30,391 bases of DNA from a virus. Where the stretch lies: IMG/VR virus record IMGVR_UViG_3300032053_000003, positions 1 through 30,391 of that record; one strand, given 5' to 3'. The position numbers and the translations under genes were made by a program. Below the pieces are notes generated by a model, which made no database searches, was not told the DNA's origin, and saw only the letters and a list, made by a program, of their open reading frames with translations. Below, piece after piece: positions 15,246 to 21,714 of this stretch. Position 1 is the first letter of the stretch. Every line of letters starts with the position of its first letter.

Positions 15246-15290
15246 ATGTCATTAAAATTTGATGGAGTAATCATCAGGTATGCAATATGA
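15246..15290 (+). pseudogene. 15-codon remnant of a fourth fibre N-terminal module (MSLKFDGVIIRYAI*), overlapping the start of the heptose kinase gene
   Basis: ATGTCATTAAAATTTGATGGAGTA is near-identical at nucleotide level to the 5' ends of the 10711 and 14307 genes (one Gly codon is deleted). SD TGGAGG upstream. Its TGA overlaps the ATG at 15287. Confidence 0.5.
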
Positions 15291-16294
15291 AGATAAATGA
15301 AGACTTACTTGATTCTGTTTTCAAGCATTTCAAGCAGATGAAGACCAAAACTGTAATGGTTATTGGTGATATCATGCTCGATCACTATATCAGGGGCAAG
15401 GTGGAGAGGATTTCTCCTGAGGCTCCTGTTCCTATTGTTAATGTGACAGAGGAAGTTTTGAAGCTTGGAGGTGCTGGCAATGTAGCCAGTAATTTGAAGA
15501 GCCTTGGAGCTAATGTTCTGTTGAGTGGAACTGTGGGGTCTGATATCCATAGTCAGTCCATCTTTGGTGTTCTCTATCAGGCTGGTATATCTACTGACTG
15601 GCTTGTTACAGATGCAGATAGAGGCACTATTGTAAAGACTCGTGTTATTGCTCACACTCAGCAGGTTGTCCGTTTGGATAGGGAGAACAAAACTCCTATT
15701 TCCTTTATTGTCAGGGATCGTATCATTGATGCTGTGAGTGCCAATATAGACTCTCTGGATGCTATCATTATTTCTGACTATGCAAAGGGGGTTGTCAGTA
15801 GACCTCTTGTCCAGAGGGTGTTGGGTATAGCACGTAATAAGGGTATCCCTGTCTGTGTTGACCCTAAGAACGGTAATTTTCCGTTTTACAGCAATGTGGA
15901 TGTTATTACCCCTAATATAAAAGAACTGAGCTATGGCTCTGGGATTGAGATAAGGTCCTATGAGGATATGCTGGAAGCTTCAAAGAAGATCAGGAGTAAC
16001 CTGCAATGCAAAGTCCTTTTGGTTACTCGTGGAGACCAGGGAATGAGTCTCTTTGATTTTGAGAATGAAGGAGAACCTGTGGACATTCCTACTACTGCTC
16101 GTCATGTCTACGATGTCACAGGTGCTGGTGATACAGTCATAGCTGCTTTTACTTTGGCAATGATCTCAGGAGCTACATCACGAGAAGCAGCAGTTATTGC
16201 AAATATGGCAGCAGGGATAGTGGTAGGTGAGGTTGGTACAGCCAGTGTTTCATTGGATGACTTGTATAAAGCATGTATGGGACAGGAGGATTGA
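15287..16294 (+). CDS. hldA: D-glycero-beta-D-manno-heptose-7-phosphate kinase (HldA / HldE domain I, pfkB family)
   Basis: TVMVIGDIMLDHYIRGKVERISPEAPVPIVNV...LGGAGNVASNL matches the RfaE/HldE kinase-domain N-terminus. The C-terminal DVTGAGDTVIAA is the pfkB/ribokinase anion-hole motif. There is no adenylyltransferase domain. Confidence 0.85.
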   Translation: MKINEDLLDSVFKHFKQMKTKTVMVIGDIMLDHYIRGKVERISPEAPVPIVNVTEEVLKLGGAGNVASNLKSLGANVLLSGTVGSDIHSQSIFGVLYQAGISTDWLVTDADRGTIVKTRVIAHTQQVVRLDRENKTPISFIVRDRIIDAVSANIDSLDAIIISDYAKGVVSRPLVQRVLGIARNKGIPVCVDPKNGNFPFYSNVDVITPNIKELSYGSGIEIRSYEDMLEASKKIRSNLQCKVLLVTRGDQGMSLFDFENEGEPVDIPTTARHVYDVTGAGDTVIAAFTLAMISGATSREAAVIANMAAGIVVGEVGTASVSLDDLYKACMGQED

Positions 16295-16492
16295 GGAGAG
16301 GCAGGGTCAGACTCACAATGTTGATAATAAAATATTTTTGGATCTTTACACCATTCACTTTTTGTAACAATATGATTGATGTTTACAGACAAGTTTGTCT
16401 GAGATTATACCTATCCAGCAATGTATCATGCCTGGAGTATTTATTTGGGTTTCTTTGAGATAAGGAGATGGATATTTGGGTAAGGTGGTCGA

Positions 16493-16714
16493 ATGAATAA
16501 AGCACAAGAGTTACTTCAGTTGGTAGGTACCAATCCTGATCCTTATGTATTGTCTGCTGTGGCTGATCTTACTGATGATCTGCCTATCAATAAAAGGGGT
16601 ATTGAGGATCAGATTGAGCTGCTGAACCACATACTGCATAAGATCAATAACCACAGGGATTCCAAAGTCCAAGGCATGGCTAATGTGGGGATACTCATTC
16701 AGGGTCTAACTTAA
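16493..16714 (+). CDS. Small protein (73 aa) with N-terminal MNKAQELLQL motif
   Basis: SD AAGGTGG upstream. Motif-family member. Confidence 0.5.
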   Translation: MNKAQELLQLVGTNPDPYVLSAVADLTDDLPINKRGIEDQIELLNHILHKINNHRDSKVQGMANVGILIQGLT

Positions 16715-16838
16715 ACTGGATAAAAAAATGGAGAAGCCATTAGGTGACCTCTCCTAACTTAGATGGAGTTTTAATTCAATGTATGTTAATGAGTTTCTGG
16801 GTCTTTGTCAAGTTACTATTTATTTATAAGGGGTAATT

Positions 16839-17171
16839 ATGGTTATAGAGGCTGAGACCACTGTAAATACTGGTGAGATTGGGAGTATAGTTCCTGTCAT
16901 TGAGGCTGAAGCCACTGTAGTGGTGAAGGAAACACAGGTAGAAGGTGCTCCTCCTGAAGGTACAGATGTGGGTCCTGTTGCTCCTGTTGCTCCATTACCT
17001 AGTCCCCAAGATGATCCTATGTACAGAAGGGTTAAAGCTATAATGGACATGAAGATAAGGAGAGATGCTCAGAGGGCTAAAGAGACAAAGTGTTGTAAGA
17101 GTAAGAACAAGCCTCATGATAAGGACAAGAAGAGAGCAGCTAAGAAGTCCAAGAAGAAGAACAGACACTAA
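16839..17171 (+). CDS. Bipartite small protein: acidic N-terminal half, strongly basic Lys-rich C-terminal tail (possible DNA-binding internal protein)
   Basis: C-terminus KCCKSKNKPHDKDKKRAAKKSKKKNRH. ATG at 16839. Confidence 0.45.
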   Translation: MVIEAETTVNTGEIGSIVPVIEAEATVVVKETQVEGAPPEGTDVGPVAPVAPLPSPQDDPMYRRVKAIMDMKIRRDAQRAKETKCCKSKNKPHDKDKKRAAKKSKKKNRH

Positions 17172-17174
17172 GCT

Positions 17175-19784: not shown

Positions 19785-20299
19785 TGGAGTTAACTAATTT
19801 TCTGGGTAAAGGTATAGCACAGACAAAGGAAGCCATACCTCTTTGGGAGTCTCTTGTAAGTAGTCATAGACCTGCACGTATTATTGAGCTGGGAACAGGT
19901 GGTGGTATGTTCAGCTGCTATTTGAAATTACTGTGCATACAGTTTGATGCCGAGTTCCATACTTTTGATAATCATCCTTTGACAGAGACATCAGTAAGTC
20001 ATCTATTGGATCTACGCAGTTCATTTGAGATGCTGGACATATTTGTAAATGAGGAAAAGATAGCTGGCCTGATCAAGAGAGATGGGCTGACTATCATGTT
20101 TTGTGATGATGGGGACAAGATTCGTGAGTTTAATATGTTCACGAAATACCTGAAAACAGGTGATATTATCTCAGCTCATGATTGGGGTGTTGAGATAAGT
20201 AATCAAGATGTTGTTGAGTCTCTTATTGATCTAAGTTATTTGCCATTAAATGAGTTTTTGGAAGTGGCTGCTTATACAAAGTTTTTTATTAAATTATGA
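19781..20299 (+). CDS. Class I SAM-dependent methyltransferase (sugar O-methyltransferase-like)
   Basis: Motif I IIELGTGGGMF. Acidic beta2 end (HTFDNHP). IMFCDDGD post-I motif. Start overlaps the upstream stop (GTGATGG). Confidence 0.5.
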   Translation: MMELTNFLGKGIAQTKEAIPLWESLVSSHRPARIIELGTGGGMFSCYLKLLCIQFDAEFHTFDNHPLTETSVSHLLDLRSSFEMLDIFVNEEKIAGLIKRDGLTIMFCDDGDKIREFNMFTKYLKTGDIISAHDWGVEISNQDVVESLIDLSYLPLNEFLEVAAYTKFFIKL

Positions 20300-20970
20300 G
20301 AAAGATTGCAATTATTAATCGCTATAAGGGATCAGTGGATTGGACTAATAAATTGAACTTTGAGTACATCATTTATAACAAGCTCGATCCTCTGATATCC
20401 AGTCAATATTATAAGACAGATCAAGAGAACACTCAGGAGTATTATAAGAGGTTGTTTAGTGTTCCTGGCTTTTTGGAGATAATGAGACCTAAAAGTCCTG
20501 ATCTTAATTTGGTTACCAATGTGGGTCATGATGCTTCCACCTTTTTCTACCACATTGTTAATAACTTTGAAGATCTGGCTGATATCAATATTTTCTTACA
20601 TGAGAACCCTTTTCATCATTACCACAATGGTGATTTTATACAGATGCTGAATGGCCTTAATGAGATACCTGATTATATGGACTGGGGACAGATAATGCTT
20701 TCTGATAGAGATGGAGGACCCACAGATAGGTGTCCTGTTGGTGATGTGTTCCATCATTTGTTTCCAGACCAAGAAGTTCCAGACTCTTATACCTTTGTGT
20801 CAGGCTCATTGTTTGCCCTCTCTAAAGCTTCTATTCATAGGTTGGGGATCAAGTTCTTTAAAACCTGCATAAAGGTAACAGAGACAGAACCACTGGCACC
20901 TTGGGCATTTGAGAGGCTCTATTTTAGAATTTTCACTGAAACGAAGCCTAATGCTGGGCTCGTAATATAG
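20296..20970 (+). CDS. Hypothetical protein (224 aa) within the glycan cassette
   Basis: ATGA overlap with the upstream gene. No confident motif. Confidence 0.5.
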   Translation: MRKIAIINRYKGSVDWTNKLNFEYIIYNKLDPLISSQYYKTDQENTQEYYKRLFSVPGFLEIMRPKSPDLNLVTNVGHDASTFFYHIVNNFEDLADINIFLHENPFHHYHNGDFIQMLNGLNEIPDYMDWGQIMLSDRDGGPTDRCPVGDVFHHLFPDQEVPDSYTFVSGSLFALSKASIHRLGIKFFKTCIKVTETEPLAPWAFERLYFRIFTETKPNAGLVI

Positions 20971-20988
20971 TACCTTAAGGAGGGCTCT

Positions 20989-21651
20989 ATGAGAAGATTT
21001 ATGATTCTCGTTCTATTGTTTATGGTTATGGTACCAGGTCTGGTTTTTGGACTTGGAATTCATGTAAATTGGAGTGCTAACACTGAAACAGATCTTGCTG
21101 GGTATAAGGTGTACTATGGAACGGTGGCTGGTTCATATGGGGCTCCTATCGATGTTGGCAAGGTTACCTCTCATGACATTGGTAATCTCTTGGACAGTAT
21201 TACATATTATGTAGCTATTAGTGCCTATGATACATCTGGAAACGAATCTGCAAAGTCTGCTGAGGCATCTATTCTTATGCCTGACAGAACTCCTCCAGCT
21301 GCTCCTGGCACACCTATAATTGTCTCTGGTGTGAAGTCTTTAGCAGTTTCTTGGACCACTGTAGCCACTGCTGCAACTTATAAGCTGTATTATGGTACAG
21401 TAGCAGGTGTATATGGTACTCCAGTCATAGTGACAGGTACTTCTTATACACTTTCAAATCTCTTGGATAACACTACATACTATATATCCATTAGTGCTGT
21501 GGATGCTTCAGGTAACGAGTCTACAAAATCTGTAGAAATCAGTAGTAAGACAAAGGATACCACTCCTCCAACTGCTCCAGGCAAACCTACTCTCACTATT
21601 TGGGAGCAGATAGCAGCTTTTTTTAAGAGACTGTTTGGTAGTTTGGCTTAA
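20989..21651 (+). CDS. Exported or membrane-anchored protein with N-terminal signal/TM segment and two tandem fibronectin type III-like domains
   Basis: MRRFMILVLLFMVMVPGLVFG hydrophobic leader. Two repeats of about 105 aa (LAGYKVYYGTVAGSYG...YYVAISAYDTSGNES / YKLYYGTVAGVYG...YYISISAVDASGNES), each followed by a TPP(A/T)APG linker. Confidence 0.6.
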   Translation: MRRFMILVLLFMVMVPGLVFGLGIHVNWSANTETDLAGYKVYYGTVAGSYGAPIDVGKVTSHDIGNLLDSITYYVAISAYDTSGNESAKSAEASILMPDRTPPAAPGTPIIVSGVKSLAVSWTTVATAATYKLYYGTVAGVYGTPVIVTGTSYTLSNLLDNTTYYISISAVDASGNESTKSVEISSKTKDTTPPTAPGKPTLTIWEQIAAFFKRLFGSLA

Positions 21652-21676
21652 GATTATTTAGCAAAGGACATTCTGC

Positions 21677-21714
21677 AGATTAGGGGGTATGATAGTACCC
21701 CCTAATCTTTTTAT
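21677..21714 (+). terminator. Strong rho-independent terminator
   Basis: AGATTAGGGGGTA-tgatag-TACCCCCTAATCT (13-bp perfect GC-rich stem), immediately followed by TTTTTAT, 26 nt after the cassette's last stop. Confidence 0.8.

Follow-up and report, generated by a model that had tools for sequence, protein, structure and literature searches.

The DNA analysed here, referred to as the window, is a stretch of 30,391 nucleotides from a virus (positions 1 to 30,391 of IMG/VR record IMGVR_UViG_3300032053_000003). The subject of this work is the interval 15246–21714 on its plus strand, which runs from a 15-codon stub abutting a heptose-7-phosphate kinase gene (hldA) to an intrinsic terminator. An earlier description of the same DNA, made without database searches (the sequence-only reading), had taken the whole 6.4 kb as one heptose and glycosylation cassette that had entered horizontally at the 5′ module of a fourth fibre gene and that ended in a terminator brought along with it. 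On comparison with related phage contigs, the interval is probably, if by no means certainly, a composite stretch of one rightward gene run built of four layers, and not one acquired cassette. The first layer would be a captured stand-alone hldA at a fixed position of the phage backbone, and the second a set of conserved small phage genes between the kinase and an island. The third layer would be this 2.7-kb variable island itself, comprising a 56-residue open reading frame (ORF), two transferases resembling the GT-A or family 2 glycosyltransferase (GT2) type, a CmcI-like O-methyltransferase, and a DUF3431 protein. The fourth would be a conserved Sec-exported protein with two fibronectin type III (FN3) domains, followed by its own conserved terminator.

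Some features do fit a single cassette: the stub is real and abuts the kinase, a strong terminator stands at the far end, and the genes all lie on one strand, with close spacing from 17175 onward. The relatives argue otherwise. The kinase, the intervening ORFs, the FN3 gene, and the terminator follow one another in the same order in contigs that have no stub, and the variation is confined to 18269–20988. Moreover, the pair of GT2 genes lies at another site in one relative (L009), and a comparison of L008 with L009 shows fibre-like genes being inserted, not the kinase. The GC content stays between 0.37 and 0.42 across the interval without a step, as in the rest of the window, and a compositionally foreign block was ruled out on this basis. 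Nor is the block a run of sugar genes, since five further ORFs between the kinase and the transferases had been left out of the earlier description. Acquisition of the whole interval as one cassette is thus highly improbable.

Phage Setting and Related Contigs

The long ORFs of the window all lie on the plus strand as far as about 27.8 kb. They include a large terminase (371–2698) and a portal (6502–8838), both of which contain inteins; the portal shares 29% identity with the portals of Rhizobium T4-like phages of about 200 kb. Exact copies of the kinase and of other window proteins occur on contigs of 230,776 bp (ENA) and 237,444 bp (JGI). Combined with the terminase and portal content, these copies identify the source as an uncultivated jumbo myovirus of about 230–237 kb.

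Megablast of the block against 50,697 GenBank phage records gave no match. Scanning IMG/VR with the kinase returned no relatives, and with a Kelch-like protein of the window (described below) distant multi-repeat proteins only, while a scan of JGI metagenomes with the kinase gave just two matches, each at 26% identity. Four related phage contigs were obtained through exact-protein look-ups of kinase homologues, and all window proteins were compared with them by tblastn. Their kinases are 65% (L006, from a contig of 246,837 bp), 71% (L007), 75% (L008), and 75% (L009, from a contig of 109 kb) identical to that of the window. The contig L008 is short: it spans no more than the kinase with one gene on each side, and it reaches neither backbone flank.

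Where the contigs reach, the genes keep a common order (L006, L007, and L009). The DUF5662 gene is followed, after other genes, by the DUF5661 gene, a first slot, the kinase, a second slot, the genes of 73, 110, and 97 residues, the DUF7717 gene, a third slot, the FN3 gene, genes of 63 and 41 residues, a fourth slot, and a homologue of w22186. When related phages were compared at the stub junction, as the sequence-only reading had proposed, it was the island that proved to be present or absent; the kinase stands at the same place in L006, L007, and L009.

The Heptose Kinase as a Fixed Backbone Gene

The kinase (15287–16294, 335 residues) had been assigned to HldA or the first domain of HldE, and the profile searches bear this out. 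It scores 370.5 bits against TIGR02198 (rfaE_dom_I; cutoff 345) over model positions 2–314 of 315, and it matches HldA of Burkholderia cenocepacia (PDB 4E84) with E = 1.9e-54. The model of the bifunctional HldE (NF008454) is matched over its kinase half only (positions 5–315 of 475; 295 bits against a cutoff of 521), and the protein has no C-terminal adenylyltransferase domain of the cytidylyltransferase type. The motifs DVTGAGDT, ITPNxKEL, and GDIMLDHY..G.V.RISPEAPVP are shared by the five phage copies and bacterial HldA. Of these, GAGD (the anion hole with the catalytic Asp) and TPN..E are catalytic motifs of the PfkB family, and the N-terminal RISPEAPVP motif is typical of HldA. Judged by these features, the window kinase is a genuine stand-alone HldA.

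A kinase that has drifted to a new substrate outside the ADP-heptose pathway, such as another sugar phosphate or a nucleoside-like compound, would be in keeping with a TIGR02198 score only modestly above the cutoff (370 vs 345), with the lack of partner enzymes nearby, and with the long branches inside the phage clade. Such a drift is nevertheless very doubtful, given 60% identity to housekeeping HldA, the invariance of GDxMLDxY..G.V.RISPEAPVP and DVTGAGDT in five of five phage copies, and the far lower score of the next-best family (ribokinase, 82 bits).

The nearest bacterial homologues are themselves stand-alone genes (332–338 residues, 60–61% identity), and several of those in the match list carry the names Deltaproteobacteria, Desulfomonilia, or Thermodesulfobacteriota. 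In the two bacterial copies whose surroundings were examined, hldA sits in a housekeeping neighbourhood, ftsY-hldA-DUF4416-yicC-remA-gmk-pyrF. A neighbour-joining tree places the phage kinases in a single clade, sister to those bacterial sequences. Pairwise ratios of non-synonymous to synonymous substitution rates (dN/dS) among the phage kinases range from 0.12 to 0.19, and the PfkB and HldA motifs are all intact. Together, these observations point to a single ancient capture, after which the gene was inherited vertically and maintained by selection. The ancestor of the clade would have captured a bacterial housekeeping hldA once, and the gene would have been kept since then under purifying selection at a fixed position, namely the one after the DUF5661 gene and before the 73-residue gene where it is found in L006, L007, and L009. 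The monophyletic phage clade, the purifying selection, and the fixed position in relatives speak against a recent insertion of the kinase.

To call a kinase-only HldE in a phage unusual, as had been done, was an overstatement: the nearest bacterial homologues are stand-alone HldA, and rfaE/hldA-like kinases are already annotated in the cyanomyophages P-SSM2, P-SSM5, S-SSM7, and S-SM2 and in uncultured phage genomes of 595–735 kb.

HldA converts heptose-7-phosphate to heptose-1,7-bisphosphate, and the onward route to ADP-heptose requires GmhA, GmhB, and HldC. The roughly 50 kb around the kinase (the window and 10 kb beyond either end) yielded none of the three, and it is for this span that the reported lack of an adenylyltransferase partner holds. 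The phage would thus depend on the enzymes of its host, unless it encodes the partners elsewhere in its genome.

The Stub and the Turnover of Kelch-like Genes

The 15-codon stub (15246–15290) reads MSLKFDGVIIRYAI followed by a stop. A GGAGG Shine–Dalgarno sequence (15235–15239) sits 6 nucleotides 5′ of it, and its TGA overlaps the kinase ATG in an ATGA at 15287–15290. Its first 24 nucleotides equal the 5′ end of the gene at 14307 minus one codon. With up to two mismatches allowed, the window has four occurrences of the 16-mer AAAATTTGATGGAGTA, at the gene starts 2708, 10711, and 14307 and in the stub, against a chance expectation of 0.08. The stub with its stop over the kinase start had thus been described correctly.

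The shared 5′ module is equally well founded, whereas the name "fibre" given to it is unproven. The genes at 10711 and 14307 encode six-repeat Kelch-like proteins. The one directly upstream of the stub (14307–15221) encodes 304 residues in six repeats of about 45 residues, seen in the DNA as six direct repeats spaced 129–138 nucleotides apart, and begins with the module MSLGKFDGV..NIGKV that it has in common with 2708 and 10711. The protein has a weak match to the Kelch domain of Keap1 (E about 0.05) and a match to phrog_27227, a family of unknown function (E = 1e-50); its AlphaFold2 model, built on two sequences, is unusable (pLDDT 35). The gene at 10711 likewise encodes six Kelch-like repeats, and WxGSSWxTTS clusters of Ser and Thr are found in these repeats. 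The gene at 2708 combines the same N-terminal module with a LamG domain, and its PHROG matches are annotated as baseplate wedge or virion structural protein.

How such genes move is best seen in L008 and L009, in which the kinase DNA is 97% identical and the Kelch-like genes differ on both flanks. Upstream, a 315-residue Kelch-like gene and a hairpin in L008 stand exactly in place of a 73-nucleotide spacer in L009 that bears the element TGTCACTACTTTTGACA. Downstream of the kinase, L008 has a second Kelch-like gene and L009 an unrelated protein of 521 residues. The pair therefore identifies the Kelch-like genes as the mobile parts and the kinase as the fixed part, the reverse of the proposal that the kinase block was acquired by recombination at the fibre 5′ module. 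The 17-nucleotide element TGTCACTACTTTTGACA, some 20–40 nucleotides upstream of the kinase start, is identical at L006 9962–9978 and L009 2992–3008, two contigs between whose kinases synonymous sites are saturated. It may serve the phage as a promoter or operator, and it is not present in the window.

No stub is found 5′ of the kinase in L006, L007, L008, or L009. That of the window is most readily explained as what remains, at the 5′ end, of a tandem Kelch-like paralogue since lost, a scar of Kelch-like gene turnover. The deletion joint can be placed 12–17 nucleotides before the kinase ATG, because the last 14 or so nucleotides still resemble the kinase leader of L008. Deletion or recombination at this joint would have removed the upstream element common to L006 and L009. 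The kinase's own Shine–Dalgarno sequence in the window is weak (AGGT), and this weakness, together with the GGAGG of the stub and the ATGA overlap, makes translational coupling to the stub and read-through from the 14307 gene plausible. The kinase would then probably owe its transcription to read-through from that gene and its translation to coupling with the stub ORF.

The 521-residue protein of L009 (4076–5641) deserves a separate remark: its C-terminal end, NVALANIGKVIGKTL, is similar to the NIGKV module that the Kelch-like and LamG proteins have at their N-termini, and the module may be a portable docking motif.

Conserved Genes and a Variable Sugar-gene Island

Between the kinase and the transferases lie the five ORFs already mentioned (73, 110, 97, 267, and 56 residues; 16493–18446), which span 2.15 kb and have no sugar-related annotation. 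The first four have counterparts in the relatives. The 73-residue ORF (16493–16714) opens with MNKAQELL and has homologues of 54–66% identity directly 3′ of the kinase region in L006, L007, and L009. The 110-residue ORF (16839–17171), with a very basic C-terminus, has C-terminal homologues in the same three contigs, as has the 97-residue ORF (17175–17468) at 50–66% identity. The 267-residue ORF (17465–18268), with a C-terminal DUF7717 (Pfam, E = 1.3e-12) and a homologue in L009, forms the left border of the variable island. L006 has two separate genes (14366–14914 and 14965–15306) in place of this fused ORF, which retains at the junction an internal MSKAQLVKEL that resembles a recurrent N-terminal motif treated below. 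Where the window has other small genes, L007 carries, two genes 3′ of its kinase, a gene with a Pfam match to Tad5 (2816–3277; PF25190), possibly a counter-defence gene judging by the name.

The island (18269–20988) fills a hot spot that has the DUF7717 gene on its left and the FN3 gene on its right. In L006, this slot holds a 72-residue ORF and in L009 a DUF3431 gene alone, compared with five genes in the window. The first of the five encodes a basic, Cys-containing product of 56 residues (18276–18446) and has no homologue in the relatives. The genes are tightly packed, with starts and stops overlapping or one nucleotide apart. The homologues of the two glycosyltransferase genes in L009 (75% and 77% identity) are adjacent to one another about 5 kb downstream, beside a radical-SAM gene, and the island itself therefore appears to be assembled from smaller mobile units. 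No flanking direct repeats were found around the island, and no promoter or terminator of its own; sigma-70-like promoter matches were as frequent as in shuffled sequence (33 found vs 34.8 expected) and were not used.

The proteins of the island fit their earlier descriptions to differing degrees. Of the two proposed GT2 enzymes, the second, GT2b (19092–19784, 230 residues), exceeds the Pfam cutoff for PF00535 (27.6 bits vs 23.3), with a match limited to 64 residues near its N-terminus (5–68); QSCDT is readable by eye, and weak matches to SpsA and chondroitin synthase were obtained. The first, GT2a (18446–19090, 214 residues), falls below the cutoff (PF00535, 20.8 bits vs 23.3, E = 4e-4) and is GT-A-like by its motifs only (VTVIINNRD, IIIVDNDST, and FVVTDPDL).

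The putative class I S-adenosylmethionine (SAM) methyltransferase (19781–20299, 172 residues) has no direct Pfam or PDB match as a single sequence, and the assignment is drawn from its ELGTGGG motif, its remote homologues, and their profile. In a sample of 43 from 1354 homologues, 10 match RMNT_CmcI (PF04989) and 9 match Methyltransf_24 (PF13578). Against the PDB, the family profile matches the O-methyltransferase 3NTV (E = 2.7e-4) and CmcI (E = 0.013), which is consistent with an enzyme related to CmcI and rhamnosyl O-methyltransferases.

The protein that had been left as unknown (20296–20970, 224 residues) can now be assigned to DUF3431 (PF11913, 46.5 bits; cutoff 25). It has His-rich invariant positions and only eight homologues; the AlphaFold2 model from this eight-sequence alignment is unusable (pLDDT 48). 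Scans of genome and viral contig collections with the DUF3431 alignment returned nothing, single-sequence PDB searches with the DUF3431 protein and GT2a gave nothing meaningful, and tblastn of the DUF3431 protein, GT2a, and GT2b against GenBank phages gave no match. In relatives (L009 and L010), the DUF3431 gene adjoins sugar-modifying genes and the FN3 gene.

The FN3 Protein and its Terminator

Downstream of the island, the gene at 20989–21651 encodes a protein predicted to be exported by a Sec-type route, with two FN3 domains and linkers rich in Pro, Ala, and Thr. The Pfam fn3 model gives 44.7 bits, the gene contains an internal direct repeat of 273 nucleotides, and the N-terminus consists of MRR and a hydrophobic stretch. 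Homologues with 53% (L006) and 68% (L009) identity begin with the same hydrophobic N-terminus. An exported tandem-FN3 protein is what had been predicted, and the two fn3 repeats and the Sec-type N-terminus agree with it.

The predicted terminator (21677–21714) consists of a hairpin at 21677–21708 with a stem of 14 bp and a loop of 4 nucleotides (−23.8 kcal/mol, z = −4.1), followed by TTTTTAT. It is real and as strong as had been claimed, with minor corrections to the stem (given as 13 bp) and to the distance from the FN3 stop (25 nucleotides, given as 26). L006 and L009 likewise have a hairpin with a T-run in this position after the FN3 gene, and the stems differ in sequence. This positional conservation indicates that the terminator belongs to the FN3 gene and closes no cassette.

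Possible Functions

What the kinase and the island do can be stated only tentatively. The leading possibility, which we hold with less than even confidence, is that the kinase tops up the host's supply of ADP-heptose and that the island alters a glycan in the envelope of the infected cell. While infection proceeds, the kinase would sustain the committed phosphorylation on the way to ADP-heptose, in concert with GmhA, GmhB, and HldC of the host. The island enzymes would add or methylate sugars on an envelope glycan, either lipopolysaccharide (LPS) or another lipid-linked polysaccharide, and the exported FN3 protein would act in the same compartment as the remodelled glycan. This function is favoured because sugar and polysaccharide genes recur in the interval next to an exported, conserved neighbour: a gene resembling polysaccharide pyruvyl transferases lies within the kinase-to-FN3 interval of L009, and an RmlD/epimerase gene adjoins the DUF3431 gene in L010. 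On reading the sequences, with no prediction run, no transmembrane segments are obvious in the glycosyltransferase and methyltransferase proteins, as would be expected of enzymes that assemble glycans at the cytoplasmic face.

A glycan on the virion itself is an unlikely second choice. Here, the kinase would boost ADP-heptose, and the GT2 enzymes, the methyltransferase, and the DUF3431 protein would build a glycan on phage structural proteins, either the Ser/Thr-rich Kelch-repeat proteins of receptor-binding type or capsid and tail proteins. Glycosylated mycobacteriophages, or the heptosylated autotransporters AIDA-I and TibA, would provide the model. Kelch-like genes flank the kinase in the window, L006, and L008, and their repeats contain the WxGSSWxTTS clusters; however, the kinases of L007 and L009 have no adjacent Kelch-like gene, and L006 has Kelch-like genes and no island. 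Soluble glycosyltransferases could act on virion proteins in the cytoplasm, glycosylation of virions by phage glycosyltransferases is documented for mycobacteriophages in work cited in PMC12619734, and the heptose genes of P-SSM2 likewise lie about 2 kb upstream of a tail-fibre gene. Against this, the Sec signal of the conserved FN3 neighbour points to the envelope, the pyruvyl transferase and the RmlD-like enzyme of the relatives are typical of polysaccharide rather than protein-glycan pathways, and no heptosyltransferase family was detected within the 50 kb around the kinase.

Somewhat less probable still is a mere coincidence of neighbours, in which the kinase is a metabolic auxiliary gene and the island an independent module, for instance for DNA glycosylation or the modification of small molecules. 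The two are indeed separated by the 2.15 kb of unrelated ORFs, L006 has the kinase without the island, and a Mom-like DNA-modification gene lies about 4–5 kb past the right end of the window; DNA is also a frequent target of phage glycosyltransferases (PMC12619734). Set against this are the repeated gathering of sugar and polysaccharide genes in the kinase-to-FN3 interval of different relatives and the lack of a hydroxymethylase or other DNA-hypermodification gene in the window. Furthermore, the island varies between close relatives, which would be unusual for a DNA modification matched to the phage's own polymerase and nucleases.

A more far-reaching variant, which we regard as a long shot, is that this jumbo-phage clade retains the kinase step alone of the ADP-heptose pathway, amid rapidly exchanged Kelch-repeat genes, and heptosylates the Ser/Thr-rich Kelch blades or the Pro/Ala/Thr linkers of the FN3 protein by way of heptose-1,7-bisphosphate or ADP-heptose, with the GT2 enzymes, the O-methyltransferase, and the DUF3431 protein extending and capping the glycan. 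DUF3431 would then be a new glycan-modifying family. If true, such heptosylation of Kelch or FN3 proteins would be the phage counterpart of that of AIDA-I and TibA.

Several points weigh against the overall picture of a fixed kinase that serves, together with the island, in envelope glycan remodelling. The synteny was established on four related contigs, two of them short. The bacterial source of the kinase was taken from best matches only, a few of which carry the names Deltaproteobacteria or Desulfomonilia, and read-through and translational coupling were deduced from spacing only. Nothing ties the product of the kinase chemically to the GT2 enzymes, so that the two may simply be co-located, and GT2 enzymes are not known to use ADP-heptose. 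No heptosyltransferase of the GT9 or TibC type was seen in the 50 kb around the kinase. The kinase and the island may be functionally unrelated neighbours.

Additional Features of the Window

An N-terminal motif, M-[STGN]-K-A-x-x-[LFVI]-[LIM], opens at least ten unrelated ORFs of small or medium size (e.g., MSKARSLL, MTKAHKLI, MGKAQDLL, and MNKAQELL). In the window, these ORFs start on the plus strand at 3, 3751, 4294, 5710, 8985, 11634, 11836, 13741, 16493, and 27566. Conserved in relatives (L006 7840 and 12263; L009 2189 and 5665), the motif is confined to ORF starts and their immediate vicinity. It could act as a common signal for targeting or as a propeptide, for example, in packaging into the capsid, or it could be a recombination module.

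Among the other genes of the window are a stand-alone ART-PolyVal gene (3751–4242; an ADP-ribosyltransferase of polyvalent proteins), a DUF5662 gene (12128–12793), and a DUF5661 gene (13741–14217); the ART-PolyVal and DUF5661 proteins both bear the M-x-K-A motif. A gene resembling homing endonucleases of the HNH/endonuclease VII type (12744–13373) overlaps the end of the DUF5662 gene and is not found in L006 or L009, the slot in L009 being occupied by a Methyltransf_24 gene. The terminase and the portal both carry Hint/intein insertions (Pfam Intein_splicing, with C...HNS boundaries). The portal homologue of L006 is called as a gene of 1182 residues, compared with 778 in the window, and its tblastn match is broken into three segments, suggesting that the insertions there are more numerous or longer.

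Downstream of the terminator lie a gene for a protein with a GAAD (GTPase-associated adaptor) domain (23070–23480) and an ORF that weakly resembles LAGLIDADG endonucleases (24658–24999). The strand switches at about 27.8 kb: from there to 30391 the ORFs lie on the minus strand, and both the GC skew and the AT skew change sign at the switch. Scans of the window against Rfam and for tRNA genes found nothing. Further on, about 3.9–5.4 kb past the right end of the window, the ENA contig (L019, 5136–6563) carries adjacent NADAR and Mom-like genes, a pair which hints that the phage modifies its own DNA.

Relation to Known Systems and Outlook

The closest enzymes are the bacterial stand-alone HldA (4E84 and the genes of 332–338 residues), with which the window kinase agrees in family, length, motifs, and the lack of an adenylyltransferase domain. 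Unlike these, it is a phage gene among other phage genes, is without its original upstream region, and has no partner genes in the surrounding 50 kb or so. The auxiliary genes of pelagimyophages also include rfaE/hldA-like kinases (PMC7029224). In the large myovirus P-SSM2, a cluster (PSSM2_309–311) that is surrounded by sugar genes contains a kinase of the same superfamily, and a tail-fibre gene follows some 2 kb downstream. There, the kinase is accompanied by an adenylyltransferase-like gene, a phosphoheptose isomerase, and an epimerase, whereas it is seen alone around the window. In addition, the cyanophage kinases have about 250 residues and 25–40% identity, while the window kinase is a full-length HldA that is much closer to the bacterial enzymes.

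The hypervariable tail-fibre regions of T4-like marine myophages gather LPS-type glycosyltransferases (PMC7029224). As in these regions, genes of receptor-binding type are mixed in the window with glycosyltransferase and sugar genes that differ between close relatives. The slots of the window differ in being small (0.2–2.7 kb), in their strictly syntenic backbone, and in holding Kelch-repeat proteins with a shared 5′ module. The virion-glycosylation operons of mycobacteriophages (Freeman et al. 2023, as cited in PMC12619734) resemble the present case in combining small soluble phage glycosyltransferases with structural genes in one genome; in contrast, the conserved neighbour protein of the window is exported, and the host is presumably Gram-negative.

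Morons and Gtr modules share with the island the presence or absence of an accessory block between two conserved genes and a likely role at the cell surface. The island differs from them in having no promoter or terminator of its own and in being translationally packed into the surrounding gene run. A phage moron was rejected because relatives also have the kinase, the intervening ORFs, the FN3 gene, and the terminator, and because the variable part has no transcription signals of its own. A Gtr-type serotype-conversion module was likewise rejected: neither a GtrA flippase nor a membrane GtrB or GtrC was evident on reading the sequences, and there were no matches to Gtr families.

Phage rfaE/hldA genes and variable glycosyltransferase regions are thus already described, and current concepts are not changed by the present case. 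What appears to be specific to it is a full-length HldA close to the bacterial enzymes that is fixed across a jumbo-phage clade, apparently without partner genes; a further particular is the scar, which, as we infer, rewires the expression of the kinase. The analysis also links DUF3431 to sugar-modifying genes in three separate phage contexts. The flanks of the kinase provide a small, clean example of how receptor-binding-type genes with a shared 5′ module are exchanged around a fixed gene, with a scar that would alter the expression of the neighbour. More generally, the case shows how the gene of a host LPS-core enzyme can settle in the backbone of a jumbo-phage lineage, stably and under selection, while neighbouring sugar-transferase genes turn over, and it thereby sharpens the notion of an auxiliary metabolic gene cassette.

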